Below, piece after piece: positions 2,976 to 33,026 of a stretch of 57,681 nucleotides of DNA. Both the position numbers and the translations under genes were made by a program. The number at the start of each line of letters is the position of its first letter. Position 1 is the stretch's first letter. The stretch covers positions 1 through 57,681 of the forward strand of contig CAZTOR010000001.1 of the NCBI GenBank assembly GCA_964615505.1, given 5' to 3'. The DNA comes from Candidatus Woesearchaeota archaeon (GTDB lineage Archaea > Nanobdellota > Nanobdellia > UBA10117 > ARS21). The notes under the pieces were generated by a model that was not told the DNA's origin, ran no database searches, and saw only the letters and a program-made list of their open reading frames with translations.

Positions 2976-3051
2976 ATTTCTTCTTCAGAAGAAAACTTTT
3001 AAGGCTTCTTTTTGGCGGAATGTTTATTATTAAACGCAACATAATGAAGTT

Positions 3052-3468: not shown

Positions 3469-3483
3469 GGTTTTTATATAAAT
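3469..3483 (+). promoter_or_regulatory. TATA-like box (ggtttttatataaat) for the main pilus operon
   Basis: Centred about 24 nt upstream of the ATG at 3500. No Shine-Dalgarno-like sequence lies between them. Confidence 0.45.
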
Positions 3484-3499
3484 AAGCAATATCTAATTC

Positions 3500-4545: not shown

Positions 4546-4580
4546 GATAATTATTTAACTAAAAATAAGCTTGGATATCT

Positions 4581-7057: not shown

Positions 7058-7515
7058 AGGGACAAGTAAGTATAGTTTATTTAGGTATATTGACAGTAAT
7101 AAGTTTGGCAATATTTGGCGTAATATTAGTATGGAATTTATCAATTAAAGATGCAAATACTGATTTGATTGTTGAGACTGAGATTAATAGTATACTTGAA
7201 AAAGTTGAGGCCGATATTTACTATATTGAAAGTTTGAATAAAAGTGGAGAATTTAAGATATATCGTTCTCTGCCTAACCGACTTGGTGAAGATTTCTATA
7301 CTATAACGCTACGCGCAGACGGGACAAGCAATTCTAAGGGCGGCTATTTGAATAATGACCAAATTATAATAACAAAAGATGCTAAACAAAGATTTACTTT
7401 ATCTAAAACTTATTTCAGTAAAGATATTTATACAGACCTATACATAATTCCTTCTTCAGTATCAGGTGGTGAATACACTCTGACTTCGAATAGCTCGGGC
7501 ATAAAAATTAACTAA
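7054..7515 (+). CDS. prepilin-like (minor pilin-like) protein, 153 aa
   Basis: N-terminus MKG/QVSIVYLGILTVISLAIFGVILVW. ATGA overlap with the upstream gene. Confidence 0.55.
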   Translation: MKGQVSIVYLGILTVISLAIFGVILVWNLSIKDANTDLIVETEINSILEKVEADIYYIESLNKSGEFKIYRSLPNRLGEDFYTITLRADGTSNSKGGYLNNDQIIITKDAKQRFTLSKTYFSKDIYTDLYIIPSSVSGGEYTLTSNSSGIKIN

Positions 7516-7547
7516 AAACATATATAATCTTGCCGACTATATTCGAC

Positions 7548-11220: not shown

Positions 11221-12242
11221 TGAAAAAAGGATATGTTGTAGGAGAGTATATTATTGTAACATTTTTTTTCCTAATCTTATTTGTAGGCATTGTAGATAGA
11301 GTTGTTTTAATTACTTCGGAAGAAGTAGATTTAGCACAAGATTATGAATCTTGTGCAAATTCAGAGAGAATTTTTAAGGAGCTGGTAGATAATGAGGTTG
11401 AGGTTGCGAAATACGGTATAAGTTCTGACACGGGTACAGTAAATTATGATTCAATTAAATATATTTATGACAACAAAAATCTATCTAACTATAATAATGA
11501 TACAAATAAAAGCGATTCATTTAAGTTGGCGTATGAAATAAAGGGTTTTGATGTTCAGTCTGCTTATTCTACACCGAGAGAAGATATTAGTCAATCAGGT
11601 AGAGATTCACCTGTAGCCCAAATTTGGTTAAATCACACTAATGGCTCTAATTCTTCACTTGTTCAAAATGTAATTGGAATAGGCTCTGCTAAAAATACCT
11701 CTGGAGCAAGTGACGTATATCTAACTATTGAGATGGTGATTCCAAATGCTACTTTGATTAATAGTTATACTGACTCAGGATATTGTTCGCATCTAGGTGC
11801 AGGTGATACAGTGACATATACTCAAAAATCATATGGGCTTTTAGTAAATTATAATTCTAAGATTAACAATGGTTGCGACCATAGATATATTGCTTATACG
11901 ACCAACAAAACTACGCTTTCTGATTGGGATGAACATTGGACTAGGTATGGTCCAAATTTCGGTCCAATTCAAGATATTCAACGAAATAATAATTTAATTT
12001 TTATCAGAGATATTTCGTTTAGGAGTAAAACATTGGATAAAGATTATCCCGTCTATCTCGGTAATGATACTTTAGCTAAACTTGAATGGGGTGCACCTTC
12101 AGCAAATGGTTGTGAATACAAACGACTTTACAAAATTAAAGATGATGATTCATTTTTAATAAATCAGAGTATATTTGATGAAGAGCATGAAGTGAATATA
12201 TCTCGAAATTTTATGGGGGAAATTAAAGTAACTTCAATATGA
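11220..12242 (+). CDS. prepilin-like secreted protein, 340 aa, rich in N-x-S/T sequons
   Basis: N-terminus MKKG/YVVGEYIIVTFFFLILFVGIV, with Glu at +5 after the putative Gly cleavage site. It has 4 Cys and about a dozen N-x-S/T sequons. TAATG junction with the upstream gene. Confidence 0.5.
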   Translation: MKKGYVVGEYIIVTFFFLILFVGIVDRVVLITSEEVDLAQDYESCANSERIFKELVDNEVEVAKYGISSDTGTVNYDSIKYIYDNKNLSNYNNDTNKSDSFKLAYEIKGFDVQSAYSTPREDISQSGRDSPVAQIWLNHTNGSNSSLVQNVIGIGSAKNTSGASDVYLTIEMVIPNATLINSYTDSGYCSHLGAGDTVTYTQKSYGLLVNYNSKINNGCDHRYIAYTTNKTTLSDWDEHWTRYGPNFGPIQDIQRNNNLIFIRDISFRSKTLDKDYPVYLGNDTLAKLEWGAPSANGCEYKRLYKIKDDDSFLINQSIFDEEHEVNISRNFMGEIKVTSI

Positions 12243-12610
12243 ACAAGCGCGGTTATGTATATTTCATTGAAATAATATTTGCAGTAGTTTTGGCATTTTC
12301 CTTATTTACTTCTCTACAAGTCACTTCACTTCAACAAGATAGGAATATTGAAATTAATTCGTTGATTGCCTATGATTTACTTCGAGAGCTGAATGGACAT
12401 GATATAATTTCTGATGAAGAACCATATAATTCCGAATTTGTTGAAGATTATGTGGACGCGTATTTGCCAGATACTTTTGGGTTTTACCTTACTAATGGAA
12501 CAGTTAACCTTCCAATAAGTAATTATGATTTAAGTTATGCAGAATATACCTATAAAGATTCAACCGGAGGATGGTCTACACTTAAATTATATATATGGAG
12601 TAAACTATGA
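12239..12610 (+). CDS. prepilin-like protein, 123 aa
   Basis: N-terminus MNKRG/YVYFIEIIFAVVLAFSLF. ATGA overlap with the upstream gene. Confidence 0.5.
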   Translation: MNKRGYVYFIEIIFAVVLAFSLFTSLQVTSLQQDRNIEINSLIAYDLLRELNGHDIISDEEPYNSEFVEDYVDAYLPDTFGFYLTNGTVNLPISNYDLSYAEYTYKDSTGGWSTLKLYIWSKL

Positions 12611-13233
12611 AAGGACAATTCTTTATCTCAGGTGTTGTAGTAATTGCAGTTATCTTACTCGTTTCTATGACTTATGCAAATAGTGCTGAAGAGCTTCGGA
12701 TTTATGGCGGAAATGATTTGGCTTTTGAAAATTATAAGAATGCTTATGAAGACGCAGTGCCCGATGATTGGATTGATACTCACTACGATAGCAGAAAAGT
12801 AATTGGTATTTGTGTGGATGATCCTACTTCATCAGCTTATTTTAATACAACAGTTCAATTTTCTGTTAGTACAGATTGTAAAAAGGAATTATATTCGACA
12901 ACCCCTTTTTTAATTGAATATGTTGGCGGTGGTTTAACTTCTTGCAATATTGTAATTCAGCCGTCTTCATTAAGTCTTAATTCCAAAAATTGTACATCCT
13001 TGTATATATACTACAACGGAAGTATGAGTAACGATATTCCAAATGTTGGTGATACTGCAGGAGATGTAAATGGTTCTTTAATTGATTTTATATCAATCTC
13101 AACAAGTCCTCATAGCGAGTTAGTTACTAATTATCGCGAGAAAAATATTTTAGTTAGTGAGACTTCAAGTACAAATAAAATATATAATGTAAGTTACAAA
13201 TCAAATAGAATTGATTATACCGGTCAACTTTAG
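12607..13233 (+). CDS. prepilin-like protein, 208 aa
   Basis: N-terminus MKG/QFFISGVVVIAVILLVSMTY. It has 4 Cys and several N-x-S/T sequons. ATGA overlap with the upstream gene. Confidence 0.5.
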   Translation: MKGQFFISGVVVIAVILLVSMTYANSAEELRIYGGNDLAFENYKNAYEDAVPDDWIDTHYDSRKVIGICVDDPTSSAYFNTTVQFSVSTDCKKELYSTTPFLIEYVGGGLTSCNIVIQPSSLSLNSKNCTSLYIYYNGSMSNDIPNVGDTAGDVNGSLIDFISISTSPHSELVTNYREKNILVSETSSTNKIYNVSYKSNRIDYTGQL

Positions 13234-19477: not shown

Positions 19478-21955
19478 ATGAGTAAGCAATCCGAATATAT
19501 TGATTTTAGTGAAATTTTAAACTTATTGAAAAAGAGTTACTTGAAAGTTAGAAATTTTAAATATCTTGAACATTCCTTGTTTGGTTTGATTGCAGTTTTA
19601 GCTTTATTTTTGAGGACTAGGAATATATCTCTGTTAAAGGGTAAATATTTAGTTGGTCTTGATCCCTATTATTATTTTAGACAAGCAAAAGAAATTATTA
19701 ATCAAGGATTCTTAACATCACCAGATCTATTTAGGAATCCGCCAATTGGACATGAGCCTTCGCTTGATTTTTTCCCTTATTTTATGGCCTACTGGTCTAA
19801 ATTTCTTAGTTTATTTGGATTGAATCAAGAAATGGCGCATATAATTTACCCTCCTGCCATAATGTTGATTTCATTAATTCCATTTTACTTATTTGTAAAA
19901 AATGTTTTTGGTAAAAAAATTGGTTTAATTTCGGCATTACTTCTTTCCATAATACCAGGATATATTTTTCGAACAGGTTCTGGATTTGCAGATCACGAAT
20001 CGTTAGCAATGTTATTTGTATTTAGTGCACTTTATTTCTTTAGCAGAGGTTTGGATTTTAAATCAAATAAAAAATACGTATATGGAATTGCCGCAGGTTT
20101 ATTCACTTGGTTAATGGCAATGTCTTGGAGCGCATATCCTTTCTTAGTAATTACGATCTCATTATTTTATCTTTTCAAGTTCTTCTTCTCTAAAATAGAT
20201 TTGAGATATTATCTTACGTGGGTATTAACGTTCTCGATATTATTAATTCTATTTGGAAAATTCGATATTAGCAATTACGGTATTCTTATTGCTCTTGCGA
20301 CGCTATTTATTTTAGTTATTAATCGAGTTATTTCTGATTTTGATTTTAAGATGCCTAATCAAGTATCTTCTGTAATTATTGCAATTTTTGTAGGTATTAC
20401 TATTAATTATATTTTCAAAATTATTGATTTGACATCTTTAGTCTTTAATTTACTGAATGCAGGAGGTTCATCAAAAGTAGATTTCACTACTTCCGAAGTC
20501 AGTCGAGCTTTTGTTATGAGCGGGAATAGTTATTTTTCCAATTACGGTTATCTAATTTTTATTTCCATATTAGGCCTATTCTTACTTTCTTCAGTAATAT
20601 TTGGTAAATTAAAAAAGAGTAATAGGCTGATATTGACAAGTCTCACTGTAGGTTCGGTGACCTTGGTTATGTTAGGTAACTGGAGTTATTCAATTAGTAT
20701 AATGCAGGATTTATATCTACAATTCTTAGCATCAGTTGGAATTATATTCATACTCTATTATTCTTACTTATATCAATCTAATCAAATCGAAAAAGTTCAG
20801 AATCTGGCAAATCCTAAACTTTTGTTGATATTATCGCTATTTATAACATCTGGCCTTCTTGCAAGAACGGCTACTCGATTTTTGTTTCTTTTTGGGCCTG
20901 CCGTAGTAATATTGGCAGCATATGCATTAAATGAACTCTATATTCACTCTAAAAAATTGAAGTTTGGACCAATTGTAGCAATAATTGTATTTGCAATATT
21001 ATCTTTTAATCTTGCAGAAATTAGTTATAATCAAAATAGTAGAACTGGCTCAGGTCTTCCTGGTCAATGGGAGAGTTCGATGATGTTTCTAGATTCTAGT
21101 ACTTCTGAAGATTCAATAATTGCTCATTGGTGGGACTACGGTTATTGGACACAATCTGTCGGAAATAGGGCATCGGTACAAGACGGAGGTAAACCAGGCG
21201 GAGGGTTTATGATATATACTCTTGCGCGTTATGGTATGACTCATACTGATCCAGTTGAATCATTAGAGTACTTTAAGGCTCACGGTACAACTCATTTATT
21301 ATACTCTTCAGAAGAAATTGGTAAGTATGGTGCCTTTTCATATCTTGGTTCAGATAAAAATGATGATCGTAAGTCAATGATCGGTATGTTTGGTCTTTCA
21401 GCGATTAACGAAGTTAGATCAGGGAATAAATTAACTTATCAAGGCAATTGGCAACTAGATGATACGTTAATTGATGGTAAAAAAATAATTCTTCCAGGAC
21501 AAGGATATATTTCAGAAATAAATGTTTATGTGGATGACGTTGGAGTTTATGCTCCTGCTACTGTAAAGATTATTGCATCAAATTATGTTAATGAATTTGA
21601 AATTGGATGTATATATTTACATGACACAAAATTCATATTTGAAGAAAATGAATTAAATTCATGTGTAAAGGTAATTCCGAATAGTAACGGCGGAAATAGG
21701 AACGATTTGGGCGGTGCATTATACTTATCTGAAAAAGTTAAGGACGGTCTATTTGCAAAACTCTATATTCATTCTGAACAAATTGAAGGGTATTCTCAAA
21801 TATATTATGATAATATTCCGCTATCTTTCTTTAAAGGTAGGTTGATGGGACCAATAAAGATCTGGAAACTTGATTATCCGAATAACTTAAATAATGTTGA
21901 TAGATTTTTAGATGAGGCTAAATTGCCCGAATTTAAAGAAAATTATATCTTATGA
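19478..21955 (+). CDS. aglB: archaeal oligosaccharyltransferase AglB (STT3 family)
   Basis: 825 aa. Multi-TM N-terminal half, the catalytic WWDYG motif (AHWWDYGYWTQ) and a soluble C-terminal domain. Confidence 0.85.
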   Translation: MSKQSEYIDFSEILNLLKKSYLKVRNFKYLEHSLFGLIAVLALFLRTRNISLLKGKYLVGLDPYYYFRQAKEIINQGFLTSPDLFRNPPIGHEPSLDFFPYFMAYWSKFLSLFGLNQEMAHIIYPPAIMLISLIPFYLFVKNVFGKKIGLISALLLSIIPGYIFRTGSGFADHESLAMLFVFSALYFFSRGLDFKSNKKYVYGIAAGLFTWLMAMSWSAYPFLVITISLFYLFKFFFSKIDLRYYLTWVLTFSILLILFGKFDISNYGILIALATLFILVINRVISDFDFKMPNQVSSVIIAIFVGITINYIFKIIDLTSLVFNLLNAGGSSKVDFTTSEVSRAFVMSGNSYFSNYGYLIFISILGLFLLSSVIFGKLKKSNRLILTSLTVGSVTLVMLGNWSYSISIMQDLYLQFLASVGIIFILYYSYLYQSNQIEKVQNLANPKLLLILSLFITSGLLARTATRFLFLFGPAVVILAAYALNELYIHSKKLKFGPIVAIIVFAILSFNLAEISYNQNSRTGSGLPGQWESSMMFLDSSTSEDSIIAHWWDYGYWTQSVGNRASVQDGGKPGGGFMIYTLARYGMTHTDPVESLEYFKAHGTTHLLYSSEEIGKYGAFSYLGSDKNDDRKSMIGMFGLSAINEVRSGNKLTYQGNWQLDDTLIDGKKIILPGQGYISEINVYVDDVGVYAPATVKIIASNYVNEFEIGCIYLHDTKFIFEENELNSCVKVIPNSNGGNRNDLGGALYLSEKVKDGLFAKLYIHSEQIEGYSQIYYDNIPLSFFKGRLMGPIKIWKLDYPNNLNNVDRFLDEAKLPEFKENYIL

Positions 21956-22629
21956 AAACAACAATTGTGATCCCTGCATTTAATGAGGGAAAGAGAATTG
22001 GTAAAGTTCTTTCTAAGTTGGATAAGTACTCTTACAAAATAATTGTAATTAATGACGGTTCATCAGATGATACAGAAAATGTTGTTAAACAATTTAAACG
22101 AGTTAAGTTAATCAACCATAAAAATAATTCTGGGCAAGGTGCAGCATTAAGAACAGGGATTCGTGCAGCGCTAAAAGATAAATCAGATATTATTGTTACT
22201 TTTGATGCAGACGGTCAACATAAAGCAAGCGATATAAAGAAATTTATTACTAAAATTAATGAAGGTTATGAAGTAGTATTGGGTTCTCGTTTTATTAAAA
22301 AAACAAAACTGCCGCTAAAGCGTAAATTTTTGTTGAAAGGCAGTATCCTTGTTGAACGTTTGTTTATTGGCATTAAACTTACTGATGCACATAATGGTTT
22401 TAGAGCTTTTTCTTCTAAAGCTGCACGCAGAATAAAGATTAAAGAAAATGGGATGGCTCATGCATCTGAAATAGTATATAGAATTAAAGAAAACAAGCTT
22501 AAGTATGCTGAAATTCCTATCAGCATTAAATATACTCGTGATACTCTTTCAAAGGGCGGGAACACCGTACCTCGAGCAATGAAAATACTATATAAACTAA
22601 TAAAATTAAGATTTCGTGTTCAAACATAA
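21952..22629 (+). CDS. GT2 glycosyltransferase (dolichyl-phosphate sugar synthase-like)
   Basis: IVIPAFNE, NDGSSDDT and FDADGQH (DxD) motifs of GT-A family 2. ATGA overlap with aglB. Confidence 0.8.
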   Translation: MKTTIVIPAFNEGKRIGKVLSKLDKYSYKIIVINDGSSDDTENVVKQFKRVKLINHKNNSGQGAALRTGIRAALKDKSDIIVTFDADGQHKASDIKKFITKINEGYEVVLGSRFIKKTKLPLKRKFLLKGSILVERLFIGIKLTDAHNGFRAFSSKAARRIKIKENGMAHASEIVYRIKENKLKYAEIPISIKYTRDTLSKGGNTVPRAMKILYKLIKLRFRVQT

Positions 22630-22661
22630 TACATATAAATTGAATCTGAAAGGAGTTTTTA

Positions 22662-23240
22662 ATGGATATTGATAAAATAATCAAACAAAGCATTGATGTT
22701 AAGACTAGTTTGTTAGATGCGGACTTTATCTCAGAATTAGAGAAGGTTGGACAAGTATGTGTCGATGTATTGAAAAAAGGGAATAAAATACTTGCTGCAG
22801 GTAATGGCGGAAGTTCATCCCAAGCAAGCCACTTTATTGGAGAATTGCTTGGTAGATTTGAATTGGATAGATCTGCACTTCCCGGAGTTTGCCTATCTTC
22901 TGATTTAACTAACTTAACTGCAATTTCAAATGATTATGGTTATGACCACGTTTTCTCTAAACAAGTAGAAGGACTTGGAAAAGAGGGCGATATTTTTGTC
23001 GGTCTAACTACTTCAGGAAATTCTGAAAATATTATTAGAGCTTTAGAAAAAGCGAAAAAAAATGGACTACAAACCATTGTTTTGAATGGTAGAGATGGAG
23101 GCATCCTGAAAAATTCAGACTTAGTTGATTTCAATCTTATTGTAAAGGATGAAAATACTGCCAGAATTCAGGAAAGCCATATCTTGATAATTCATATTAT
23201 TTGTAAATATATTGAAGATGGATTATTCAAAAATTCTTGA
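22662..23240 (+). CDS. gmhA: phosphoheptose (sedoheptulose-7-phosphate) isomerase GmhA
   Basis: SIS domain with AAGNGGSSSQASHFIGEL and GLTTSGNSENI. The 192-aa length is typical of GmhA. Confidence 0.85.
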   Translation: MDIDKIIKQSIDVKTSLLDADFISELEKVGQVCVDVLKKGNKILAAGNGGSSSQASHFIGELLGRFELDRSALPGVCLSSDLTNLTAISNDYGYDHVFSKQVEGLGKEGDIFVGLTTSGNSENIIRALEKAKKNGLQTIVLNGRDGGILKNSDLVDFNLIVKDENTARIQESHILIIHIICKYIEDGLFKNS

Positions 23241-24186
23241 TTTTGTTAAGAATAATAGTTTCAGCGAAAGGAATATTTTAGTAATTGGAGACATAATGCT
23301 TGATGAATTCTGTTATGGTTTTGCAAATAGAATTAGTCCTGAGGCACCTGTTCCTGTTTTTGAACCAAATAATTCAAAATATATGTTGGGTGGTGCAGGG
23401 AATTCAGCATTGAATCTTAAGACTCTCGGATCAAATGTTGAAATAATTGGGATAATTGGTGAAGATGATAGTGCTGATAAAATTAGTGAACTATTGCGTA
23501 ATTTTAAAATAAAAAACCGGTTGATATCGGATAAATTTTCTACTACTCACAAAAAAAGATTTGTTGCATCAAATACTCACTTATTAAGAAAAGATGTTGA
23601 AAAAATTAGGGATATTAACGGTAGTGAAACAGAAAAAAAGATAATCAATGTAATTGATTCAATTCAGAATATTGATGCTATAATAATATCGGATTATGCA
23701 AAAGGCGTGATAACCAAAGACATCGTTGATCAATTGAAAAATAAAGGTGTGCCGATTTATGTTGATTCTAAACCTGAAAGATATGATTTATTCGACGAAG
23801 TATATTTATTAAAACCGAATTTGCGACAGGCCATGATGGCATTAGGAATTCGGAGAGATGAATTAAGAGTTGAAGAAATTGCATTAAATCTATCTAAGAA
23901 ATATAATTCAAATATTTTTCTTACGCTAGGTGACCAAGGTTCACTAATACATGAATTGGACTCTGAAAAAAGTAATTTGATTCAAATATTTGATAAGAAA
24001 AAATTGAAAGATGTTAGTGGTGCAGGAGATACTGCATTATCTGCCTTTGTATTAGCTAGTCTAGAAAAAGATTTAGTTTTCTCTGCAGAATTTGCGAATA
24101 TATGTTCAGGAATGGTTGTATCAAAATCCGGTACTTCGAGTACCTCTTTAGATGAAATAGAGGTTGAACTAACTAATGGAAAATAA
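23212..24186 (+). CDS. hldA: D-glycero-beta-D-manno-heptose-7-phosphate kinase (RfaE domain I / HldA)
   Basis: N-terminal VIGDIMLDEF...RISPEAPVPV is the RfaE-I signature. Also has the PfkB-family C-terminal motif VSGAGDT. The start may instead be the ATG at 23218. Confidence 0.85.
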   Translation: MKMDYSKILDFVKNNSFSERNILVIGDIMLDEFCYGFANRISPEAPVPVFEPNNSKYMLGGAGNSALNLKTLGSNVEIIGIIGEDDSADKISELLRNFKIKNRLISDKFSTTHKKRFVASNTHLLRKDVEKIRDINGSETEKKIINVIDSIQNIDAIIISDYAKGVITKDIVDQLKNKGVPIYVDSKPERYDLFDEVYLLKPNLRQAMMALGIRRDELRVEEIALNLSKKYNSNIFLTLGDQGSLIHELDSEKSNLIQIFDKKKLKDVSGAGDTALSAFVLASLEKDLVFSAEFANICSGMVVSKSGTSSTSLDEIEVELTNGK

Positions 24187-25264
24187 AAAGATAATTGATG
24201 AAATAATTGGTAAATTTAATTTTGTACTTAATTTGATTCCAGTTAAGGATTTTCCTAGAGGTAAAAGAGTCATAATCATAAGACTTTGGTCAATGGGTGA
24301 GAGTATACTAACCTTGCCTTTAATGTCTCAGCTCAAGAAGAGAGGATATAAAATAGACGTATTATGTAGCAAATTTAATAAAGACATATTCTACGGTCAA
24401 TCTTTCATAAACAAATTGGAAATACTTGAATTAAATCCTTTTAAAGATTTTAGAAAAATTTTGAATTTGAGGAATCGTTATGATATTGTTATTGATACTG
24501 AGCCTTTTGTAAATATATCTTTGTGGATATCCAAATTTATCGGGAGTTACTCTATTGGATTTAATACTTGTTTACGTAAAAAATTATGGGATGCAAATAT
24601 AATTTATAATGATAAGCAACACGTTGTTTTGACTTTCCTTGATTTAATGAAACCAATTGTAAATTCTTTGGTTCCGAAAAAGTTGGTGAAACTTAAATAT
24701 AACTTAATATCTGAAAAGAAAATTAGAGGTTTATTTAGAAGTATTGGTAATAAGAAAAAAATAGTTATACATGGTGGTGTTGGTTCAACTAATAAAAATA
24801 GGTGTTGGTCACCATTCAATTTTTCAAAAGTTATGAAAAAATTGGATCGTAAGGATGTTTGTTTCATTTTAACAGGATATTCTAATTCAGAGATCGAAAA
24901 TGATAGATTAATACTTAAAAATGCGGATTTAAAAAATGCGAAGGCAATAATAACTGAAGGTAAATTAAAAAATAAAGATTTATTTTGTTTGATTTCTAAA
25001 TCAAACTTAGTTATTTCAAATGATACTGGTCCTATGCATGTTGGTGCCGCTCAAGGAACACCAACAATTGGTCTATTTGGACCCAATACGCCTGTTAGAT
25101 TTGGACCATATGGTTCAAATAATTATTCGATATATAAGGTAAAGAGTAAGCCTTTGATTAATGTTCATTTAAAAGAGTTTAAAGAAGATGGAGGTCAAAG
25201 AATAAATCGTATTAGTCCGACAGAAGTGGTGCGTTTAGCTAAAAAAATATTATGGGTAAAATAA
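24176..25264 (+). CDS. GT9 family glycosyltransferase (ADP-heptose heptosyltransferase-like)
   Basis: C-terminal SNDTGPMHVGAAQGTPTIGLFGP matches the GT9 WaaC/WaaF nucleotide-sugar binding motif (gNDSGpmHlAaAlgtP...lfGp). Confidence 0.8.
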   Translation: MENKKIIDEIIGKFNFVLNLIPVKDFPRGKRVIIIRLWSMGESILTLPLMSQLKKRGYKIDVLCSKFNKDIFYGQSFINKLEILELNPFKDFRKILNLRNRYDIVIDTEPFVNISLWISKFIGSYSIGFNTCLRKKLWDANIIYNDKQHVVLTFLDLMKPIVNSLVPKKLVKLKYNLISEKKIRGLFRSIGNKKKIVIHGGVGSTNKNRCWSPFNFSKVMKKLDRKDVCFILTGYSNSEIENDRLILKNADLKNAKAIITEGKLKNKDLFCLISKSNLVISNDTGPMHVGAAQGTPTIGLFGPNTPVRFGPYGSNNYSIYKVKSKPLINVHLKEFKEDGGQRINRISPTEVVRLAKKILWVK

Positions 25265-25713
25265 TTGATATATCTAATCTAGAAGAACTTGTGAAGAAAT
25301 TGAGAACTAAATCGAGAAAAATTGTGACTACTAATGGTGCATTTGATATGTTGCACGTAGGTCATTTAGCAAATTTAGAATTTGCAAAAAATCAGGGAGA
25401 TGTATTAATTGTTGGTTTAAATTCTGATTCATCAATTAAAAAATATAAATCCAAAGATAGACCTATAGTAAATGAGAAAAATCGTGTTAAATTAATTGCA
25501 GCATTATCTTGTGTAGATTATGCTTTTATTTTTGAAGATGAAACTCCTTTGAATTGGTTAAATATAATTAAACCGGATATTCATGTTAAGGGGAACGAAT
25601 ATTTGAATAATCTTTTGGAGCAGGAAACTGTTGAGCGATACGGAGGGAAAATATTATTTAGCGGAGATAAAATTGAATCGACGACTAATTTAATTTCTGA
25701 ATTAGAAAAATGA
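25252..25713 (+). CDS. hldC: D-glycero-beta-D-manno-heptose-1-phosphate adenylyltransferase (RfaE domain II / HldC)
   Basis: 153-aa cytidylyltransferase-fold protein with TNGAFDMLHVGH (HxGH) and LIVGLNSDSSI, as in RfaE domain II. Confidence 0.85.
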   Translation: MGKIIDISNLEELVKKLRTKSRKIVTTNGAFDMLHVGHLANLEFAKNQGDVLIVGLNSDSSIKKYKSKDRPIVNEKNRVKLIAALSCVDYAFIFEDETPLNWLNIIKPDIHVKGNEYLNNLLEQETVERYGGKILFSGDKIESTTNLISELEK

Positions 25714-26843
25714 AAATCTGTATGATGATTGATGCGTGGAAACCACAGTGGGGTGGTGGTCAAATACATACGTTTGATTTATCTAGAACACTGGAAGAGC
25801 AAGGACATACTGTTGATCTATTTACTATGAATCTAGACGGTAAACCTACTATTTCTAAAGATACGGGTTTCAGAGTAATACGTGTCGGTAAACCGAAAGT
25901 TAAATTTAATGTAATTAATCGATTAAAATGGTGTATTCAAGTTTGTAGCGCAATTTATAGAATGAATAAGTTTGAAAAATATGATCTAATTCATGCGCAT
26001 GCGAATCTTTCCGGATTACCTGGAAAGATTATGAGTAAATACTTAGGAATTCCGATAGTTTATACGGTACACGGTAGCGGAATAAAATCAATTTTTCAGA
26101 TGTATGGATTAAATCCGTTTTCACTAGCATTAGGTCTCTTTGAAAGATTTTTACAAACAGCAATTATTTATGATACTGAAATTAGCGTAGATAGTAATTT
26201 TTTCAAGATGAGAAATTTGAATAAGAGAGTAAAGGTTATTCATAGTGCAATTGATGTCAATAAGTTTAAAGGTGTTAAGGATAAAAAAGGTAAAACTTTC
26301 AGATTCTTATTTGTTGGTAGATTGCATCCTCAAAAAGGTGTTTCAATTTTACTTGAATCATTGAGTAAAATTAAAAATGAATTAAATGGTGTTGAATTTG
26401 TTATTGTGGGCGGTGGTCCTGATGAAGTTAAATTGAAGTCTGAATCAAAAAAATTGGGTTTAAATAAATTTGTTAAGTTTACTGGTCGAATTTCAGATAA
26501 TAAATTGAAAAATTATTATTCTTCTTCGGATTGTTTCATATTACCGTCTTTATTTGAAGGACTGCCTTTAACACTATTAGAAGCTTGGTCTGCAAAATTG
26601 CCAGTTTTAGTAACAGATGTAGGCGAGCATAAATTATTAATCTCTCAAGGTAAAGAAGGTTTTGTTATTGAACCCAATAATATTGATGAATTGAGTGATA
26701 CTATTATTAAAGTAGCGAATATGAAAAAAAGTAATTTGAAAAAGATGGGTATGAATGGATATAAAAAAGTGAATAAAAATCATACGCTCAAAGTAATGGT
26801 AAATAAAGTACTAAGGGTTTACAAAGAGGTGTTAATAAAATGA
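25710..26843 (+). CDS. GT4 glycosyltransferase
   Basis: GT-B fold with GGGQIHTFDL near the N-terminus and the E-x7-E motif FEGLPLTLLEAWSAKLPVL. Confidence 0.85.
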   Translation: MKICMMIDAWKPQWGGGQIHTFDLSRTLEEQGHTVDLFTMNLDGKPTISKDTGFRVIRVGKPKVKFNVINRLKWCIQVCSAIYRMNKFEKYDLIHAHANLSGLPGKIMSKYLGIPIVYTVHGSGIKSIFQMYGLNPFSLALGLFERFLQTAIIYDTEISVDSNFFKMRNLNKRVKVIHSAIDVNKFKGVKDKKGKTFRFLFVGRLHPQKGVSILLESLSKIKNELNGVEFVIVGGGPDEVKLKSESKKLGLNKFVKFTGRISDNKLKNYYSSSDCFILPSLFEGLPLTLLEAWSAKLPVLVTDVGEHKLLISQGKEGFVIEPNNIDELSDTIIKVANMKKSNLKKMGMNGYKKVNKNHTLKVMVNKVLRVYKEVLIK

Positions 26844-27490
26844 GTACTAAATCTTATTCCAAGGGATATTATAATAAAATTAAACATAAAAAAATGAGTG
26901 GTTTCAAAAAGGCTTTATTTAAACTTATATCTTCAACACCTTTCGTGTCCAGATATTATTTTGTGTTAAATAAGCTTATATTGAGTTTGAATCCTAGATT
27001 TGATAAAAAAATAAAAGTCTTAGATATAGGGTGTGCACAAGGCGGATTTTTAAATTTTTTAAAAAATATTAGACCTGATTTTGAATTATATGGAATGGAT
27101 ATTTCAGACATGAAGAAACTTCTTCCGAAAAATGTTAAATTTATCAACAAAAATATAATTACGGATAAGTTACCCAAAGATAAATTTGATTTAATAGTAT
27201 CACTACATTTAATTGAACATATTAATGTTTCCGATGTTCCAATATTCTTTGAAAGAGCCAAAAAATTACTAAATAAAAATGGAGTTTTGTTTGTTCTTGT
27301 ACCCAGACTTTCTCAAGAATTTTATAATGATCCTACTCACATAAGACCTTACAACAAAGAGTCTCTAGAACGATTATTTAAGATGGCGGAATTTAAAACA
27401 TTTAAAACATTTAATAATGATGAGTTTAACTTTCCGTTTAATAAACTACTAAATTCTATGAAATTGTGTTTTGGATTTGGAATAAAATGA
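26840..27490 (+). CDS. class I SAM-dependent methyltransferase
   Basis: Motif I VLDIGCAQGGF and post-I/II spacing (YGMDIS ... FDLIVSLHLIEH). Confidence 0.7.
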   Translation: MSTKSYSKGYYNKIKHKKMSGFKKALFKLISSTPFVSRYYFVLNKLILSLNPRFDKKIKVLDIGCAQGGFLNFLKNIRPDFELYGMDISDMKKLLPKNVKFINKNIITDKLPKDKFDLIVSLHLIEHINVSDVPIFFERAKKLLNKNGVLFVLVPRLSQEFYNDPTHIRPYNKESLERLFKMAEFKTFKTFNNDEFNFPFNKLLNSMKLCFGFGIK

Positions 27491-28320
27491 AAGTTGTTAT
27501 CTGGAATAGCCGAGGTAGAATTGTCGGAGATACGATTCGAGAAACATCGATATTAAAATCGATTGAAGGTAAGATAGATATTATAGGTAGCTCAATAATA
27601 AAAGATTGTTATTCAGGTAATCCTTATGTTAATAAATTAATTGTAGATAAAAGATTAGACATTCTGACAAAGAATGTTTCAATTTTCAGAAAGATTGAAG
27701 CGTATACCTGCAGCGTTTTATATTCATTAAACAAAATAAAAAGGTATGATTTATGCATTATTACTCAAAAAAATAAGTTTTTATTTTCAGTATTGTCTAG
27801 AGTAGTAGGAACTCCTTTTTTACTTAAAGACGATATTAAACCCAATTTAGATATTGCAAAATTTTATTTTAGTAGATCTGAATTGGATAAATTAGATAAA
27901 TTTATCAAGAAAAATAAAAAGAAAAAAATTGGTATAAATATTGAATCTAGATCTAAAAAAAGAGCTTGGCCTATTGAAAAATATATTAAATTGATTCAAG
28001 TTTTAATTGATTCTAACTTTGAAGTATATCTTATGGGTTATGATACAAAGTATAATTCAAAGATCGTATCTAAATTTGGAAATAAAATTAATAATTTGGT
28101 AAAAAATAAATTATCAATACGGGAATCTGCAGCAATATTATCTAAATTAAATTGGTATATTGGAAATGATTCAGGATTTGCACATGTTGCAGTCGCTAGT
28201 GGTACAAATAGTTTAGTAATATTTTTGGATAGTAATGCTAAGATATTGAATCGAAATGACGTTATTGTTAAAAAACTTAGAAATCCATCAATAAATAAGG
28301 TGATTAAATTAATAAAATGA
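27487..28320 (+). CDS. second GT9-like glycosyltransferase (heptosyltransferase-like, short form)
   Basis: C-terminal GNDSGFAHVAVASGTNSLVIF matches the GT9 motif. The ATG at 27487 forms an ATGA overlap with the upstream stop, so the longer start at 27466 in the track is unlikely. Confidence 0.6.
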   Translation: MKVVIWNSRGRIVGDTIRETSILKSIEGKIDIIGSSIIKDCYSGNPYVNKLIVDKRLDILTKNVSIFRKIEAYTCSVLYSLNKIKRYDLCIITQKNKFLFSVLSRVVGTPFLLKDDIKPNLDIAKFYFSRSELDKLDKFIKKNKKKKIGINIESRSKKRAWPIEKYIKLIQVLIDSNFEVYLMGYDTKYNSKIVSKFGNKINNLVKNKLSIRESAAILSKLNWYIGNDSGFAHVAVASGTNSLVIFLDSNAKILNRNDVIVKKLRNPSINKVIKLIK

Positions 28321-29816
28321 GTTTGAAGAAAAGGCTGATAACAGGTGGACTTTGGATAAGTGGAGCTACAGTAATTGCTGCAGCACTTGCATTTGCATAT
28401 AGATTATTATTAATTCAAAATTTGACAGTTTATGAATATGGTCTATTTTATTCAATTGTTACTTTCTTTCTGATTGCAACTACCTTTATCGATATGGGTA
28501 TCTCTCCAGCTTTTCAGAAATTTGGGTCTGAATTTTTAGCCAAAGGTAAAAGTGGGAAGTTTAATTCGCTGATAGAATATTTGTTAAAATATAAAATTAG
28601 AAATGGTTTATTATTTCTGATTTTAGTGGTTATTTCGTCTAAATTTTTAGCAACATATTATTTTAGAGATATTACTGCTTTTTCATTATTTATTGCATTA
28701 GGGCTAGTTTATTTCTTTATAGATATATTCTTTAATTTCATTAACACGCTTTTACAAACATTTCAAGACCAAAAATTATATTCTTTATATGAAGTAATTA
28801 AGATCGCTTCTCAAGTTTTGTTGCTTTATCTATTTATTTTGATGGGATTCGGAATATGGAGTCCGGTATTTGCAATGTTTTTGGGAAATGCATTACCTAG
28901 TTTAGTATTCTACTTTTTAGTTAGAACTAAACATCTAGTAAAACTTGGTTCTAAACTTGACCGATTATCTTCAGATTATGTTCGAATTAAAAAATTTGCA
29001 ATATTAAATGTGTTATTTATTTTCGGAGTTTATGTATTGAATTATACGGATACGCTAATGCTTACCGGTCTTAGAACCATAGAGGAAGTCGGATTGTATA
29101 ATGTTGCGGTACCTACGGCCAAACTAATACTTTTCTTTTCAGGAGCATTTACATTAATATTAATTCCTTTGACTTCAGCACTTTATTCTGAGAAAAAATT
29201 TGATGTTTTGAATAAACTGATAAATATATTGTATAAATTAAATATTGTATTCTTATTACCGATCGCAATGATACTGATTATCTATCCTGATATTGTAATT
29301 AGAGTTCTATTCTCTGAAAAGTATTTACCGGCAGCAAAGGCGTTGTCAATTCTAAGTGTTTCCGCTGTATTGTCTGTATTCTTTTTAATCAATTCACATA
29401 TTCTTAATGGTTTAGAAAAAGCTAAAGCAAACTTTAGAATAACTTCAATTGGAGCCATATTCAATATATTTTTGAATTTGATTTTAATTCCGATTTACGG
29501 TTTAGTTGGTGCAGCAATATCGACTTTAGGCGGATACTCGTTGATGAGTATTTTGAGTTTTGGTGCCCTTTCTAATAAATTTAATGACTTTAAATTGGAT
29601 TTCAAAGGAATTATGATGCCAAGCATAGCTGGTTTGATATTTCTAATTTCATTGAGTTTTATGAAATCGAATATATCTTTCCAAAATATTTGGATTGAGA
29701 CTATAGCGGTTGTTGGAGTGTCCGGAGTGATCTATATTGTATCTTTATTCGCACTGAAAGTTGTTTCGATAAAGCAAATAACTGAACTTATAAATTTATA
29801 TAAATTAAGGAATTAA
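28317..29816 (+). CDS. wzx: Wzx-type oligosaccharide flippase (MOP/polysaccharide biosynthesis protein family)
   Basis: 499 aa with about 12-14 TM helices and the typical MOP flippase organisation. ATGA overlap with the upstream gene. Confidence 0.8.
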   Translation: MSLKKRLITGGLWISGATVIAAALAFAYRLLLIQNLTVYEYGLFYSIVTFFLIATTFIDMGISPAFQKFGSEFLAKGKSGKFNSLIEYLLKYKIRNGLLFLILVVISSKFLATYYFRDITAFSLFIALGLVYFFIDIFFNFINTLLQTFQDQKLYSLYEVIKIASQVLLLYLFILMGFGIWSPVFAMFLGNALPSLVFYFLVRTKHLVKLGSKLDRLSSDYVRIKKFAILNVLFIFGVYVLNYTDTLMLTGLRTIEEVGLYNVAVPTAKLILFFSGAFTLILIPLTSALYSEKKFDVLNKLINILYKLNIVFLLPIAMILIIYPDIVIRVLFSEKYLPAAKALSILSVSAVLSVFFLINSHILNGLEKAKANFRITSIGAIFNIFLNLILIPIYGLVGAAISTLGGYSLMSILSFGALSNKFNDFKLDFKGIMMPSIAGLIFLISLSFMKSNISFQNIWIETIAVVGVSGVIYIVSLFALKVVSIKQITELINLYKLRN

Positions 29817-29817
29817 A

Positions 29818-30804
29818 ATGAAAACGTTCTTTGTTCAAAATGTTCCAAAATCGCACCGATCGCATCTGGTTTTTGCTAAAAGTGTTGATGCTGAACTTTT
29901 AGTTGTATCTCCGAAATTATTGCCGATTATATTAATACCAATTATTTCTTTTTTTAGATTACCTTATCTTTATTTCAAATATCCTTCGGGAAATTTTATT
30001 TGTGAAGGGATGGCGGGACTTTATTTTTCAAGTATATTGAAATTAGTACGGCCTAACATAAATATAATTTATCATGATGCTGACCTACTCTTCCTCAGAG
30101 ATTATTCTAAAATTAGCGGTATTAAAAAGAGATATTTAGATTTTTTCTTAGATAAAATAGATTCATGTATATCTGATTCCAAATTATCAGCCATTGCATT
30201 TAAAAAACACCTAAAAATTGATTTAGAAATTGTTTATCCTTCTGTGGAGATAAATAAATTTGAATTTAAACCTAATCTTAATTCTAAACAAATAATTCAT
30301 GTTGGTAGAATTGCACCTGAAAAGAATTTGGAAAGATTAGTTAGAGCATTTGCCAAAATTAATAAGAAAATTCCTGAAAGTAAGTTAGTTTTTGTGGGCT
30401 CAGGAGACAGCTACAACTTAAGACGTCTTGCTTCAAAATTGGGTGTTGAAATTGAAGTTAAAGGTTTTGTTGAAGATCTAGATAGTGAATTAAATAATAG
30501 TTTAATCGGCTACAATGTTTCGAGCTTTGAGCCATTTGGATGTAATGGACTAGAATATGCTTTGAGCGGATTAATTCCAATAATTGGTGGAAAGAATGGT
30601 AATGCTGAAGTTTTGAAAGAAAATATGATTATATGTAATGAGCGCGATGTAAATGATATTTCAAATAAGATTATTGAGTTGATGGAGTTAAGTAAGTTTA
30701 AAAAATTGAAGTTGATTAATTCGCTTAAAAATAAATCTATAAAAATTAATGATGAAGCACAATCAGCAAAGTTTAAGAAGGCGTTTGGTAAATTAAAAAA
30801 ATGA
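29818..30804 (+). CDS. GT4-like glycosyltransferase
   Basis: C-terminal GT-B half with IIHVGRIAPEKN and FEPFGCNGLEYALSGLIPI (E-x7-E-like). Confidence 0.7.
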   Translation: MKTFFVQNVPKSHRSHLVFAKSVDAELLVVSPKLLPIILIPIISFFRLPYLYFKYPSGNFICEGMAGLYFSSILKLVRPNINIIYHDADLLFLRDYSKISGIKKRYLDFFLDKIDSCISDSKLSAIAFKKHLKIDLEIVYPSVEINKFEFKPNLNSKQIIHVGRIAPEKNLERLVRAFAKINKKIPESKLVFVGSGDSYNLRRLASKLGVEIEVKGFVEDLDSELNNSLIGYNVSSFEPFGCNGLEYALSGLIPIIGGKNGNAEVLKENMIICNERDVNDISNKIIELMELSKFKKLKLINSLKNKSIKINDEAQSAKFKKAFGKLKK

Positions 30805-31991
30805 AAAATAAAACTTTGATTTTCTTTTTGGATGCAGTTCGTCCAGATTATATTGGTCGAAATACACCGTTTATGAATTCATTGAAAAAGAGTGGATCAT
30901 TCTTGAAGTTGGATACTTTGCTAGGTTACTCTTCAGGAATATGGCCAAGCATATGGACTTCAACATACCAAGATCAACATAATAAGTTTTTAGTTTATCA
31001 ATACGATCCTGCGGGTTCCAAATTTAAATGGTTTAGTTGGTTTAAATTTATGCCTGCTAAATTGAGACAATATTTTTTTGCAGGTTTGAAAGTCCCATAT
31101 TATTTTATGCCTAAGATCAGGAAATATTTGCCAAAAATATATCATGAAAGATTGTTAGATTTGCCTCCTACCATTAATCCGACTCTAGCAAAATACTTCT
31201 CAGTAGATAAATCTAGCTATAGCGGATATAATTTGATGAAAGATATTGAAAAAAAGTATAGTATAGATTATACGGGCGATCATATCAATCTACCTACTTT
31301 CAAAAAGGCTGCGCCTGTTGAAGAATGGAAATTAAGCAATAACGATATTGATTTCTTCTTCACATACGATACGGACGGATTCGGTCACACATATGGTCCA
31401 AAATCTAAAGAGATTAAAGACTTGATGAATCGAATAGATAAATCCATTAAGCGACTTTATCGAGAAGCAGATAAAAAATATGATGATGTTAATTTATTTA
31501 TATTTTCAGACCACGGTATGTGTGAGGTAAATAAATTTTTAGATGTTCAACAAGAGTTGATTAAATTGCCTTACAAGATGCCCGAAGATTATTTGGCATT
31601 TTTTGATGCGTCTATGGTTCGATTCTGGGTTAAGGACAAAAAGGTGAGAAAGGAAATAATAAAACTGATAAAATCTGTTCCCGAATTAACTTATTTGAGT
31701 GAAAGTTTGAGAGATAAATATGGTTTGAACTTCAAAGATAGAAGATTTGGTGATTTGATGTGTATTGTTGAGCCAGAGACACGAATTTTTCCCGATTATT
31801 TTGCACCAGTTAAATCTGCAATAAAAGGATTGCACGGATACGATCCTAATTTTGAGCATTCAAAGGGAGTATGGTTAAGTAATCATAAATCTAAACGGAA
31901 AAAAATGCATATAATAGATATAATACCGTCTATTGCAGATAAATTGAAAGTTAAACTTAGTAAAAAAGTTCAAGGTAAAACAATATACTAA
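30801..31991 (+). CDS. alkaline-phosphatase-superfamily enzyme (type I phosphodiesterase / nucleotide pyrophosphatase family)
   Basis: Metal-ligand and nucleophile region FFLDAVRPDY ... GYSSGIWPS, plus DTDGFGHTYGP, FSDHGM and GLHGYDP. No TM helices. Confidence 0.7.
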   Translation: MKNKTLIFFLDAVRPDYIGRNTPFMNSLKKSGSFLKLDTLLGYSSGIWPSIWTSTYQDQHNKFLVYQYDPAGSKFKWFSWFKFMPAKLRQYFFAGLKVPYYFMPKIRKYLPKIYHERLLDLPPTINPTLAKYFSVDKSSYSGYNLMKDIEKKYSIDYTGDHINLPTFKKAAPVEEWKLSNNDIDFFFTYDTDGFGHTYGPKSKEIKDLMNRIDKSIKRLYREADKKYDDVNLFIFSDHGMCEVNKFLDVQQELIKLPYKMPEDYLAFFDASMVRFWVKDKKVRKEIIKLIKSVPELTYLSESLRDKYGLNFKDRRFGDLMCIVEPETRIFPDYFAPVKSAIKGLHGYDPNFEHSKGVWLSNHKSKRKKMHIIDIIPSIADKLKVKLSKKVQGKTIY

Positions 31992-32971
31992 TCTTTTCGC
32001 CAAAACCGAGGAGCAGTTTTCCAAGATAAACATATTTCTGAACGTAATTTGGAATATTTTCTTGGATTTGATAAATATTGTTGAGTAAGTAAAATTTCGC
32101 GAACATAGGGGTTTCTGAATGAAAATTTTAATTTATTATTGAATCGGAGATTATTGAAAGTATAGAAAATGATGTTTCCTAGGTTGATGAATAAATTTGG
32201 TTTGATTTTTTTTAATTCATTAATTGCGTCAATATAATTTCTATCGAAATAAATCTCCATTATTTGTTTCCAAGCTAATCTCAAGAAATGGTTTCCGTTG
32301 GAAATTAATTTGGATTTATTTTCTCCAAACGATTTATCCTTATATCTAAAATTGTATGCTTTATTGTGTTCAGAAATAAATCCAGGTATTTTTTTGGCCA
32401 GATTATTGGATATTACTCTATTTGATCGCTTATGATTATCTGCGATATATTCTCCACTGATTAACAATAGTGCTTCACCTATTCCTAGAATTAATTTAGA
32501 ATATTCGTAATCTATATTCCGATTAGAGTGTGCATTTAGAAAAGGTCCCCCTCTGTATGTTAAAATTTGCATTGATTCCCATTTAGGAATTTGGGATATT
32601 TTAGCCTTTTTTCTTAATTTTCCATATAATACTTTTCCAGATGAACTAAATTCAAAGTACATTAAATCTGGTTTTTTGTAAATTTTTGGTGAGAAAATTA
32701 ATAGCTCCACATCTACGGGTAAATTATTAAATAATTTTACGAATTTGTTTCTAATCCAAATAGATTTTAAGGGCGATAATTTTGAAGTTATGCAATAAAA
32801 ATCGATATCTGATCCCTTGTGTGTTGCTTGGCCTCGGGCAGCAGGCCCAGTTATTCCAAAAACCTCAATAAATTTACTTAGATCGGGACTGTTTTTTATA
32901 TCTTTAATAAAGGTATTAGTTCGAGCTAATATTTCCTTCTCCAATTCAGGTCTCTTTTTGTAGAAAAACAT
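31988..32971 (-). CDS. Pol-beta-superfamily nucleotidyltransferase-fold protein with an uncharacterised helical C-terminal domain
   Basis: GITGPAARGQATHKGSDIDFY matches the minimal NTase motif (G[SG]-x9-12-DxD). The track start at 33016 is a TTG, and the first ATG (MFFYKK) is at 32971. It overlaps the convergent 30801-31991 gene by 4 nt. Confidence 0.55.
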   Translation of the reverse strand: MFFYKKRPELEKEILARTNTFIKDIKNSPDLSKFIEVFGITGPAARGQATHKGSDIDFYCITSKLSPLKSIWIRNKFVKLFNNLPVDVELLIFSPKIYKKPDLMYFEFSSSGKVLYGKLRKKAKISQIPKWESMQILTYRGGPFLNAHSNRNIDYEYSKLILGIGEALLLISGEYIADNHKRSNRVISNNLAKKIPGFISEHNKAYNFRYKDKSFGENKSKLISNGNHFLRLAWKQIMEIYFDRNYIDAINELKKIKPNLFINLGNIIFYTFNNLRFNNKLKFSFRNPYVREILLTQQYLSNPRKYSKLRSEICLSWKTAPRFWRKD

Positions 32972-33026
32972 ATTAATTTCTACTATATTTATTTTAAAAA
33001 ACTTAGTAATCAACAAAAAAGCTTAG

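Follow-up and report, generated by a model that had tools for sequence, protein, structure and literature searches.

The 57.7 kb window analysed here, that is the whole stretch of DNA at its full length (contig CAZTOR010000001.1 of a Candidatus Woesearchaeota archaeon), comes from a small uncultured marine archaeon. Twelve genes located between positions 19478 and 31991 on the forward strand form a single compact operon, in which three genes of the ADP-heptose pathway (gmhA, hldA and hldC) and two genes for heptosyltransferase-like proteins of glycosyltransferase family 9 (GT9a and GT9b) are joined directly to the gene of the oligosaccharyltransferase AglB. From AglB at 19478 to the gene of an NPP-family enzyme ending at 31991, neighbouring genes either overlap by 4–23 nt or are separated by gaps of 1–32 nt. 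The linkage of GT9a with AglB and with a glycosyltransferase of family 2 (GT2) is conserved across DPANN archaea. We consider it probable, with some reserve, that positions 19478–31991 constitute a self-contained N-glycosylation operon, which would build a short methylated heptose glycan on dolichol phosphate for transfer to surface proteins by AglB. The genes had been correctly identified in an earlier inspection of the DNA (hereafter the sequence-only reading), and the finding is real. It is less surprising than had been proposed there: the ADP-heptose pathway of archaea had been established before, and for a heptosylated archaeal N-glycan there is a precedent.

Gene families were assigned by profile searches with Pfam and NCBIfam (Table 1). 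For GmhA, HldA and HldC the best NCBIfam matches were TIGR00441, TIGR02198 and TIGR02199, respectively, and the three scores lay under the corresponding equivalog cut-offs of 209 (209.45), 345 and 181.5 bits, indicating diverged orthologues and not near-identical copies. GmhA matched the Campylobacter jejuni GmhA 1TK9 with 170.8 bits, and 13 of its 15 PDB matches were GmhA proteins, the weakest two being the paralogue DiaA. The sole PDB match of HldA at E ≤ 1e-5 was the Burkholderia HldA 4E84 (114.5 bits). The sequence RISPEAPVPV is common to both proteins, and RfaE domain I outscored the other families by a wide margin. HldC matched the Burkholderia HldC 5X9Q with 92 bits. The profiles and PDB matches bear out the places at which the sequence-only reading had put GmhA, an RfaE domain I kinase and an RfaE domain II adenylyltransferase. 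They agree with it as well on the split of the kinase and the adenylyltransferase, between which the GT9a gene intervenes, and on a second GT9-like gene at 27487, the gathering cut-off of PF01075 being 22 bits. The scores for these families were far above chance.

AglB displayed the WWDYG motif at residues 551–555 and about 12 hydrophobic segments, and its gene overlaps that of the downstream GT2 by 4 nt. The top NCBIfam matches of this GT2 were PpgS (polyprenyl-phospho-GalNAc synthase, 164.9 bits) and AglJ (88.9 bits), both under the equivalog cut-offs. At the family level, the operon encodes, with AglB, a PpgS/AglJ-like GT2, a GT4, the two GT9 proteins, a GT4-like enzyme and a MOP/Wzx flippase. 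The methyltransferase probably acts in sugar O-methylation. The open reading frame (ORF) of hldA begins with a TTG at 23212, and the start assigned by gene callers is the ATG at 23218. In the centre of the operon (24001–30000) the GC content was 0.27–0.295, against about 0.32 for the whole window.

Table 1. Genes of the operon, with the profile matches on which their assignment is based, and position of the cupin gene in related loci.
Feature	Coordinates	Strand	Profile matches and remarks
AglB (STT3-type oligosaccharyltransferase), first gene of the operon	19478..21955	+	PF02516 70.9 bits; TIGR04154 101.8 bits
Soluble GT2, polyprenyl/dolichyl-phosphate sugar synthase-like (PpgS/AglJ-like)	21952..22629	+	PF00535 104.3 bits
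GmhA, SIS-type sedoheptulose-7-phosphate isomerase	22662..23240	+	TIGR00441 192.7 bits, E 4e-57
HldA, PfkB-type heptose-7-phosphate 1-kinase (RfaE domain I)	23218..24186	+	TIGR02198 256.7 bits, E 3e-76
GT9a, full-length, GT9 heptosyltransferase-like, between hldA and hldC	24176..25264	+	PF01075 90.7 bits
HldC, single-domain heptose-1-phosphate adenylyltransferase (RfaE domain II)	25252..25713	+	TIGR02199 156.2 bits, E 5e-46
GT4 glycosyltransferase (GT-B, retaining type)	25710..26843	+	PF00534 145.1 bits; PF13439 64.3 bits
S-adenosylmethionine (SAM)-dependent methyltransferase	26840..27490	+	PF13489 74.9 bits
GT9b, compact GT9 of 277 aa	27487..28320	+	PF01075 65.8 bits, C-terminal half only
Wzx/MOP-family flippase (AglR-like role)	28317..29816	+	PF01943 60.2 bits; PF13440 48.2 bits; 13 hydrophobic segments
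GT4-like glycosyltransferase	29818..30804	+	PF00534 83 bits; C-terminal GT1 domain alone recognisable; one N-terminal hydrophobic segment
NPP-family enzyme (alkaline-phosphatase superfamily), last gene of the operon	30801..31991	+	PF01663 86.7 bits
Cupin at the GmhA position of related loci	L013:11362-11742; L017:8777-9160; L018:10477-10845; L023:11997-12353; L026:12380-12748; L031:13205-13711		

The cluster is native to an archaeal genome. Both flanks of the operon carried archaeal genes (Hel308, SecDF, the DP2 and DP1 subunits of PolD, Cdc6/Orc1, thermosome, LonB and RadB), and XPF, Cdc48 and a type IV pilus-like locus were also found in the window; tRNA genes, rRNA genes and Rfam matches were absent from it. 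Assemblies of at least six samples, made in two independent projects, contained the 12.5 kb block with its archaeal flanks at 99.8% identity. Two sister lineages, with DNA about 77% identical to the window (GT9a being 80% identical at the protein level), had the twelve genes in an unchanged order and with the same archaeal flanks. The recovery in at least six independent assemblies and the colinearity in sister species exclude chimerism. A contig in which bacterial lipopolysaccharide (LPS) genes had been fused to archaeal DNA, for which the GC content of the cluster (0.27–0.31, slightly under the window mean of about 0.32) could be invoked, has in our view a negligible probability, the closest homologues of GT9a, HldA and HldC being themselves archaeal. 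The earlier claim that the genes are integrated and not contaminating was thus correct.

The same genes had been described as a bacterial-type pathway. This stands for the identity of the genes, and does not extend to a recent import from bacteria. When the GT9a alignment was scanned against one genome per GTDB species, the best 35 loci or so were archaeal, with 34–41% identity, and bacterial loci came next at 35% or less. For both GT9a and the NPP enzyme, the closest homologues came from metagenome-assembled genomes bearing the labels Woesearchaeota, Nanoarchaeota or further DPANN taxa, and the window therefore most likely belongs to a DPANN archaeon of low GC content (about 32%). In a neighbour-joining tree, calculated without support values, the GT9a of the window fell within a clade of 30 sequences from Woesearchaeota, Nanoarchaeota, Micrarchaeota, Altiarchaeota and Methanococcus maripaludis, whose single member with a non-archaeal label was a nested contig labelled Bacteroidales. 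HldA scored 160–192 bits against archaeal homologues, 95–150 bits against bacterial loci and 114 bits in the PDB; for HldC the values were 125–153, 94–116 and 92 bits, respectively. These higher scores against archaeal homologues argue against a recent bacterial import, and a recent transfer is opposed both by the similarity ranking and by the neighbour-joining tree, the latter having no bootstrap support.

The association of GT9a with AglB was not limited to the window. Related loci (numbered with the prefix L) were annotated with profiles of the window proteins in addition to Pfam. The order AglB, GT2, DUF2304, GT9a was colinear in L013, L017, L018, L019, L021, L023, L024, L025, L026, L031, L033 and L049, and the four genes were present in a permuted order in L012, which brings this module to at least 13 DPANN loci. 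In 16 related loci, a GT2 homologue was located directly upstream of a GT9a homologue, with DUF2304 intervening. A block HldD-HldA-GmhB-HldC followed 1–4 kb downstream of the module in L013, L018, L025, L026 and L031, and the same block without GmhB in L017. The conservation of the linkage between GT9a, AglB and GT2 over such a wide span of DPANN archaea indicates that it is not an accident of the window contig. The module loci, which belong to Woesearchaeota and Nanoarchaeota (L013–L049), resemble the window by their GT9a homologues (34–41% identical), by the linked AglB and PpgS-like GT2 and by the presence of the same HldA and HldC genes nearby. They differ from it by the presence of DUF2304 in the interval between GT2 and GT9 and of GmhB and HldD, all three lacking in the window, where in addition the heptose genes are interleaved with glycosyltransferase genes. 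The synteny of AglB, GT2, DUF2304 and GT9 supports heptosylation of an N-glycan linked to dolichol phosphate, and with it the earlier suggestion of a dolichol-linked glycan as likely acceptor. This conserved arrangement, with heptose genes nearby, appears to be new: a literature search turned up no paper in which AglB or DPANN archaea are connected with GT9 or with heptose genes.

Other features were visible around the module. In L018, a geranylgeranyl-reductase-like FAD protein (positions 2390–3565; matches to FAD_binding_3 and, faintly, to GGR_cat) is encoded directly upstream of AglB, and an unlabelled ORF of 354–391 aa occupies the same position in L013, L019, L021, L023, L024, L025, L026 and L049. 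The reductase-like protein is possibly a polyprenol reductase saturating dolichol. The gene upstream of AglB in the window encodes instead a SpoIIM-like membrane protein. A cupin of about 122 aa was found in the position of the SIS-type GmhA in six Woesearchaeota/Nanoarchaeota loci (Table 1), with Pfam matches to Cupin_2 and, weaker, to Lyx_isomer and to the C-terminal domain of mannose-6-phosphate isomerase. In L013, L017, L018, L026 and L031 it overlaps and directly precedes the genes HldD-HldA-(GmhB)-HldC, and L023 stops just past the cupin. GmhA was not detectable in the stretches of these six loci that were searched, and it was present at this place in L015 and L025. A cupin-type sugar-phosphate isomerase may have displaced, in a non-orthologous manner, the sedoheptulose-7-phosphate isomerase. 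Finally, in the bacterium Haliovirga abyssi (AP027059.1; L095:11211-15367), GT2-DUF2304-GT9 is accompanied by another GT9, and these genes follow, at a distance of about 2 kb, an NPP homologue with 45% identity to that of the window. The GT2-DUF2304-GT9 module is therefore not limited to archaea.

The two GT9 proteins differ in size and conservation. A GT9a family profile made of 31 sequences aligned over its full length to the Veillonella GT9 3TOV (E 7e-43), and matched WaaF (4e-23) and WaaC (2e-13). In the donor-site motif D-[TS]-G-x-x-H, the residues D283, G285 and H288 were invariant in 78 of 78 sequences, and R209 and W211 were conserved (R/K-x-W). The position of the catalytic base, Asp13 in WaaC, corresponds to G41-E42 in GT9a. 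Of the 30 archaeal sequences, 23 have Glu at this site; of the 48 bacterial sequences, 28 have Asp. The Glu may take over the role of the catalytic Asp. For GT9b, the invariant residues were G14-D15 (the G-D catalytic motif), R159 and W161 (K-R-A-W in the window protein) and G-N-D-S-G-x-x-H. Its AlphaFold2 (AF2) model (pLDDT 90.6) was a compact GT-B fold, with WaaF, 3TOV and WaaC as top Foldseek matches (TMq 0.66–0.77), and no sequence match was found in the PDB. The wider GT9 family aligned with the C-terminal half of GT9b only, and the subfamily is rare, with only 7 members at E ≤ 1e-30 in an exhaustive search of 1.8 billion representatives.

Direct protein heptosylation of the BAHT/TibC type was considered and rejected, neither GT9a nor GT9b showing similarity to such enzymes; the only PDB entries matched by the GT9a profile at E ≤ 0.001 were 3TOV, WaaF, WaaC and the plant PnsB1, with no TibC entry among them. 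The classical GT9 acceptor, Kdo-lipid A, fits the window poorly. The window contains no lpx, kds or waaA gene, and synthesis of lipid A is not known from archaea. The neighbouring genes suggest instead an acceptor linked to dolichol phosphate. As a separate observation, both the GT9a profile and the GT9b model matched PnsB1, a subunit of the chloroplast NDH (7wff_a, 7eu3_6, 9grx_1), which apparently keeps a GT9-like fold.

Two steps of the pathway were missing, as the sequence-only reading had noted for the cluster. Among the 53 ORFs scanned in the window, which cover 52 of its 59 ORFs of at least 100 aa (the remainder being located in 9221–10090 and 55400–57598 or consisting of five short ORFs nested on the opposite strand of longer genes), neither a HAD-type GmhB nor an SDR/Epimerase-type HldD was found. 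Searches with phmmer, using two archaeal GmhB and two HldD queries, gave no matches, either in the window or among the population variants L001–L006, and neither gene was present in the Pfam listings of the sister-species loci. Both are present in most related archaeal clusters, for example in M. maripaludis (L007), in an archaeal contig of 1.57 Mb (L008) and in the Woesearchaeota loci L013, L015, L018, L025, L026 and L031, so that the lineage of the window represents a reduced variant. HldD would be dispensable if D,D-heptose were used; if the gene is truly absent from the genome, a D,D-heptose donor is predicted. Within the population, a T>A change at window position 23495 (L006 position 318; ENA SAMN10231917) turned Leu93 of HldA into a stop codon in one of six assemblies. 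This L93* could reflect a genuine loss of function affecting the surface glycan, or an error in the consensus. An insertion of 43 bp in hldC of assembly L001 was discarded as an artefact, since it includes a scaffolding N run.

The NPP-family enzyme had been put forward as an example of a replacement for GmhB. It is intact: D11, S44, D192, H196, D237 and H238 were invariant and H345 nearly so, so that the bimetal site is complete and the nucleophile, a Ser, is present, and the protein, devoid of hydrophobic segments, is predicted to be soluble. Its AF2 model had a pLDDT of 94.4 and its top fold matches were NPP5, NPP6 and the NPP of Xanthomonas (Xac). That it would act as a non-orthologous GmhB, dephosphorylating heptose-1,7-bisphosphate, might seem suggested by these features, by its place at the end of the operon in a lineage without GmhB, conserved in the sister species, and by the failure to detect an NPP homologue in any of the scanned archaeal loci bearing GmhB. 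This complementary pattern of presence and absence stems, however, from one lineage. Moreover, the nearest proteins in sequence and in structure (NPP4/5/6 and the Xanthomonas NPP) act as phosphodiesterases or pyrophosphatases, not as monoesterases, and homologues with 36–41% identity are found in glycan clusters that contain no heptose genes: L094, with GT4s, a TagF-like glycerophosphotransferase, Wzx and STT3, and L096, with GT2s, methyltransferases and radical-SAM enzymes. The diesterase-like character and the occurrence in heptose-free clusters suggest a recurrent accessory of surface glycans rather than a partner specific to heptose. We hold the replacement of GmhB by this enzyme to be improbable. 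Converging on the end of the operon, a conserved ORF of 327–342 aa (31988–33016, reverse strand) had no Pfam match and has an equally placed counterpart in the sister species; its G-S-D-I-D-F motif resembles, by eye, that of Pol-beta-type nucleotidyltransferases.

The nucleotide used by HldC can be approached through its C-terminal motif. In PMC11461863, which describes the work of Tang et al. (2024), promiscuous heptose nucleotidyltransferases using CTP or UTP are linked to a motif (F/L)XXGXSTT with an Arg at position 5 (STTR5), an Arg described there as not strictly required. The window protein reads G-D-K-I-E-S-T-T, with STT kept and a Glu at position 5, and 5X9Q reads F-E-H-D-R-S-T-T. HldC of the window does not possess the Arg of STTR5, and the presence of Glu instead of Arg before STT favours, at the level of the motif, use of ATP only.

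We propose the following organisation of the pathway. GmhA would convert sedoheptulose-7-phosphate into D-glycero-D-manno-heptose-7-phosphate, which HldA would phosphorylate at C1. A phosphatase encoded outside the window would strip the 7-phosphate and HldC would adenylylate the resulting heptose-1-phosphate. On the cytoplasmic face of the membrane, the GT2 would charge dolichol phosphate with the first sugar, producing a dolichyl-phosphate-sugar primer to which GT9a would add heptose. The GT4, GT9b and the GT4-like enzyme would extend the glycan and the methyltransferase would decorate it. The lipid-linked glycan would be flipped by Wzx, and AglB would transfer it to Asn residues in the sequons of envelope proteins such as pilins.

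Possible acceptors are encoded in the same window. The type IV pilus-like locus, at 822–13233 on the forward strand, comprises a T2SSE ATPase (7530–9224), a T2SSF platform protein (10078–11220) and at least six small proteins with N-termini resembling class III signal peptides, for example KKGVTPIIAVILLMMMTVAAAGA. The pilin-like proteins (822–7515 and 11220–13233, 6–19 kb upstream of the operon) contained 14–35 N-x-S/T sequons per 1000 residues, compared with 5.9 per 1000 residues in the cytoplasmic proteins of the window, which is two to six times the background. They are candidate acceptors of the glycan.

Several observations weigh against a heptosylated N-glycan made by this operon. The heptose and GT9 genes are located apart from AglB in the M. 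maripaludis and Micrarchaeota loci (L007–L010). We know of no heptose in the published N-glycan of M. maripaludis S2, so archaeal heptose need not always enter N-glycans. The window does not possess the DUF2304 partner found in its relatives, and, since GmhB was found neither in the window nor in the clusters of the sister species, the formation of heptose-1-phosphate needs another enzyme. GT9a has a Glu where characterised GT9 enzymes carry the catalytic Asp, the donor specificity ascribed to the GT9 enzymes is drawn from family membership and gene context only, and the neighbour-joining tree is without support values. The main rival explanation is that the heptose genes and the GT9s make a glycoconjugate of another kind than an N-glycan, for example a lipoglycan, a glycolipid or a capsule-like polymer flipped by Wzx, the proximity of AglB reflecting a general clustering of envelope-glycan genes. 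Bacterial pairs of PpgS-type GT2 and DUF2304 produce polyprenyl-phosphate-sugar donors for extracytoplasmic transfer, in line with such a role. So is the location of the genes away from AglB, which in addition to M. maripaludis (L007) and Micrarchaeota (L009, L010) concerns the 1.57 Mb archaeal contig (L008), and M. maripaludis S2 is the strain whose enzymes are reported in PMC11573728 to have been tested by Tang et al. In the window, however, AglB heads the operon and overlaps the GT2 gene, the module is kept in at least 13 DPANN loci, and no Wzy polymerase, chain-length regulator or ligase was recognisable in the operon. We therefore consider this explanation rather unlikely.

It could also be supposed that the GT9s use a donor other than ADP-heptose, or that a pathway without GmhB is non-functional and the heptose genes are decaying remnants. 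The absence of GmhB and HldD, the nonsense single-nucleotide polymorphism in hldA of one out of six population assemblies (L006) and the Glu of GT9a at the catalytic-base position would be expected under this supposition. Yet the three genes gmhA, hldA and hldC were intact in the five other assemblies and in both sister species, which, given a nucleotide divergence of about 23%, indicates purifying selection. The signature motifs of the three proteins were intact, and Glu is the majority state at the base position of the archaeal clade. As to the missing phosphatase, E. coli gmhB mutants still produce some heptose-containing LPS. Decay or an alternative donor appears very improbable to us. Returning to the N-glycan proposal, it can be extended, tentatively and with slightly less than even confidence, to the whole clade: the archaeal GT9a proteins would be the first heptosyltransferases shown to act on a dolichol-phosphate-linked sugar, and manno-heptose would be an early, perhaps the second, residue of the N-glycan across many DPANN archaea. 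In the window, the donor would be ADP-D,D-heptose or, if HldC accepts the 1,7-bisphosphate, ADP-heptose-7-phosphate, leading to a phospho-heptose glycan that an NPP-type diesterase might process.

Comparison with known systems shows what is shared and what is particular to the operon. The M. maripaludis cluster (L007) has a gene set near-identical to that of the window: GmhA, HldC, HldA, GmhB, three GT9s, HldD, two GT4s, a methyltransferase and Wzx. Its Methyltransf_23-type methyltransferase is homologous to that of the window, and its P0068 is 41% identical to GT9a. It has GmhB and an HldD-like epimerase, both missing in the window, and is not located beside AglB, whereas the operon described here is headed by AglB and GT2 and contains in addition the NPP-family gene and the short GT9b. 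With the bacterial LPS pathway, the window shares clear homologues of GmhA, HldA and HldC with conserved motifs, the split of kinase and adenylyltransferase seen in Burkholderia, and the fold and donor-site motifs of GT9 heptosyltransferases. It differs by the absence of GmhB and HldD, the Glu of GT9a at the base position and the lack of a Kdo-lipid A acceptor in archaea, and by a context of AglB, a dolichol-phosphate GT2 and a flippase in place of waa/lpx LPS genes. The Agl pathway of Haloferax volcanii consists of AglJ, AglG/I/E, the methyltransferase AglP, the flippase AglR and AglB. There, as proposed here, a GT2 charges dolichol phosphate, soluble glycosyltransferases extend the glycan, and a SAM-dependent methyltransferase, a MOP flippase and AglB complete the pathway. 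The Haloferax glycan contains hexoses and hexuronic acids and involves no GT9, whereas two of the four extending glycosyltransferases of the window are GT9s, with their donor pathway in the operon.

The novelty that the sequence-only reading attached to an archaeal heptose pathway and to a heptosylated archaeal N-glycan has to be reduced in view of published work. Archaeal heptose biosynthetic enzymes, including those of M. maripaludis S2, are functional according to PMC11461863 and PMC11573728, two commentaries on the work of Tang et al. (Science 2024), and ADP-heptose gene clusters lie inside glycan regions of M. maripaludis KA1 and JJ (2025; PMC12667266). The N-glycan of Thermoplasma acidophilum includes D-glycero-D-galacto-heptose (PMC11407970, PMC12448462) and is a precedent for heptose on an archaeal Asn-linked glycan. 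The Thermoplasma sugar is the galacto isomer, whereas the manno isomer is predicted for the window, and no link to GmhA, HldA, HldC or GT9 genes is drawn in these two papers.

To this body of work are added an operon in which AglB is directly linked with two GT9 genes and with the genes of heptose synthesis, a heptose pathway reduced by the absence of GmhB and HldD, and a conserved DPANN module of AglB, GT2, DUF2304 and GT9 which makes heptose use by archaea directly testable. The reason for manno-heptose production by archaea "remains elusive" (PMC11573728), and the operon and the module offer a testable answer, namely N-linked surface glycans built on dolichol phosphate. Because M. maripaludis strains with a homologous cluster are genetically tractable, the idea can be tested now. 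If it is true, the GT9 enzymes would gain a lipid acceptor besides Kdo-lipid A, and DPANN archaea, which attach to their hosts through the cell surface, would have a new class of sugar in their N-glycans. Many uncultured archaea possessing these genes would then be potential sources of ADP-heptose, a molecule sensed by ALPK1 in vertebrate innate immunity.

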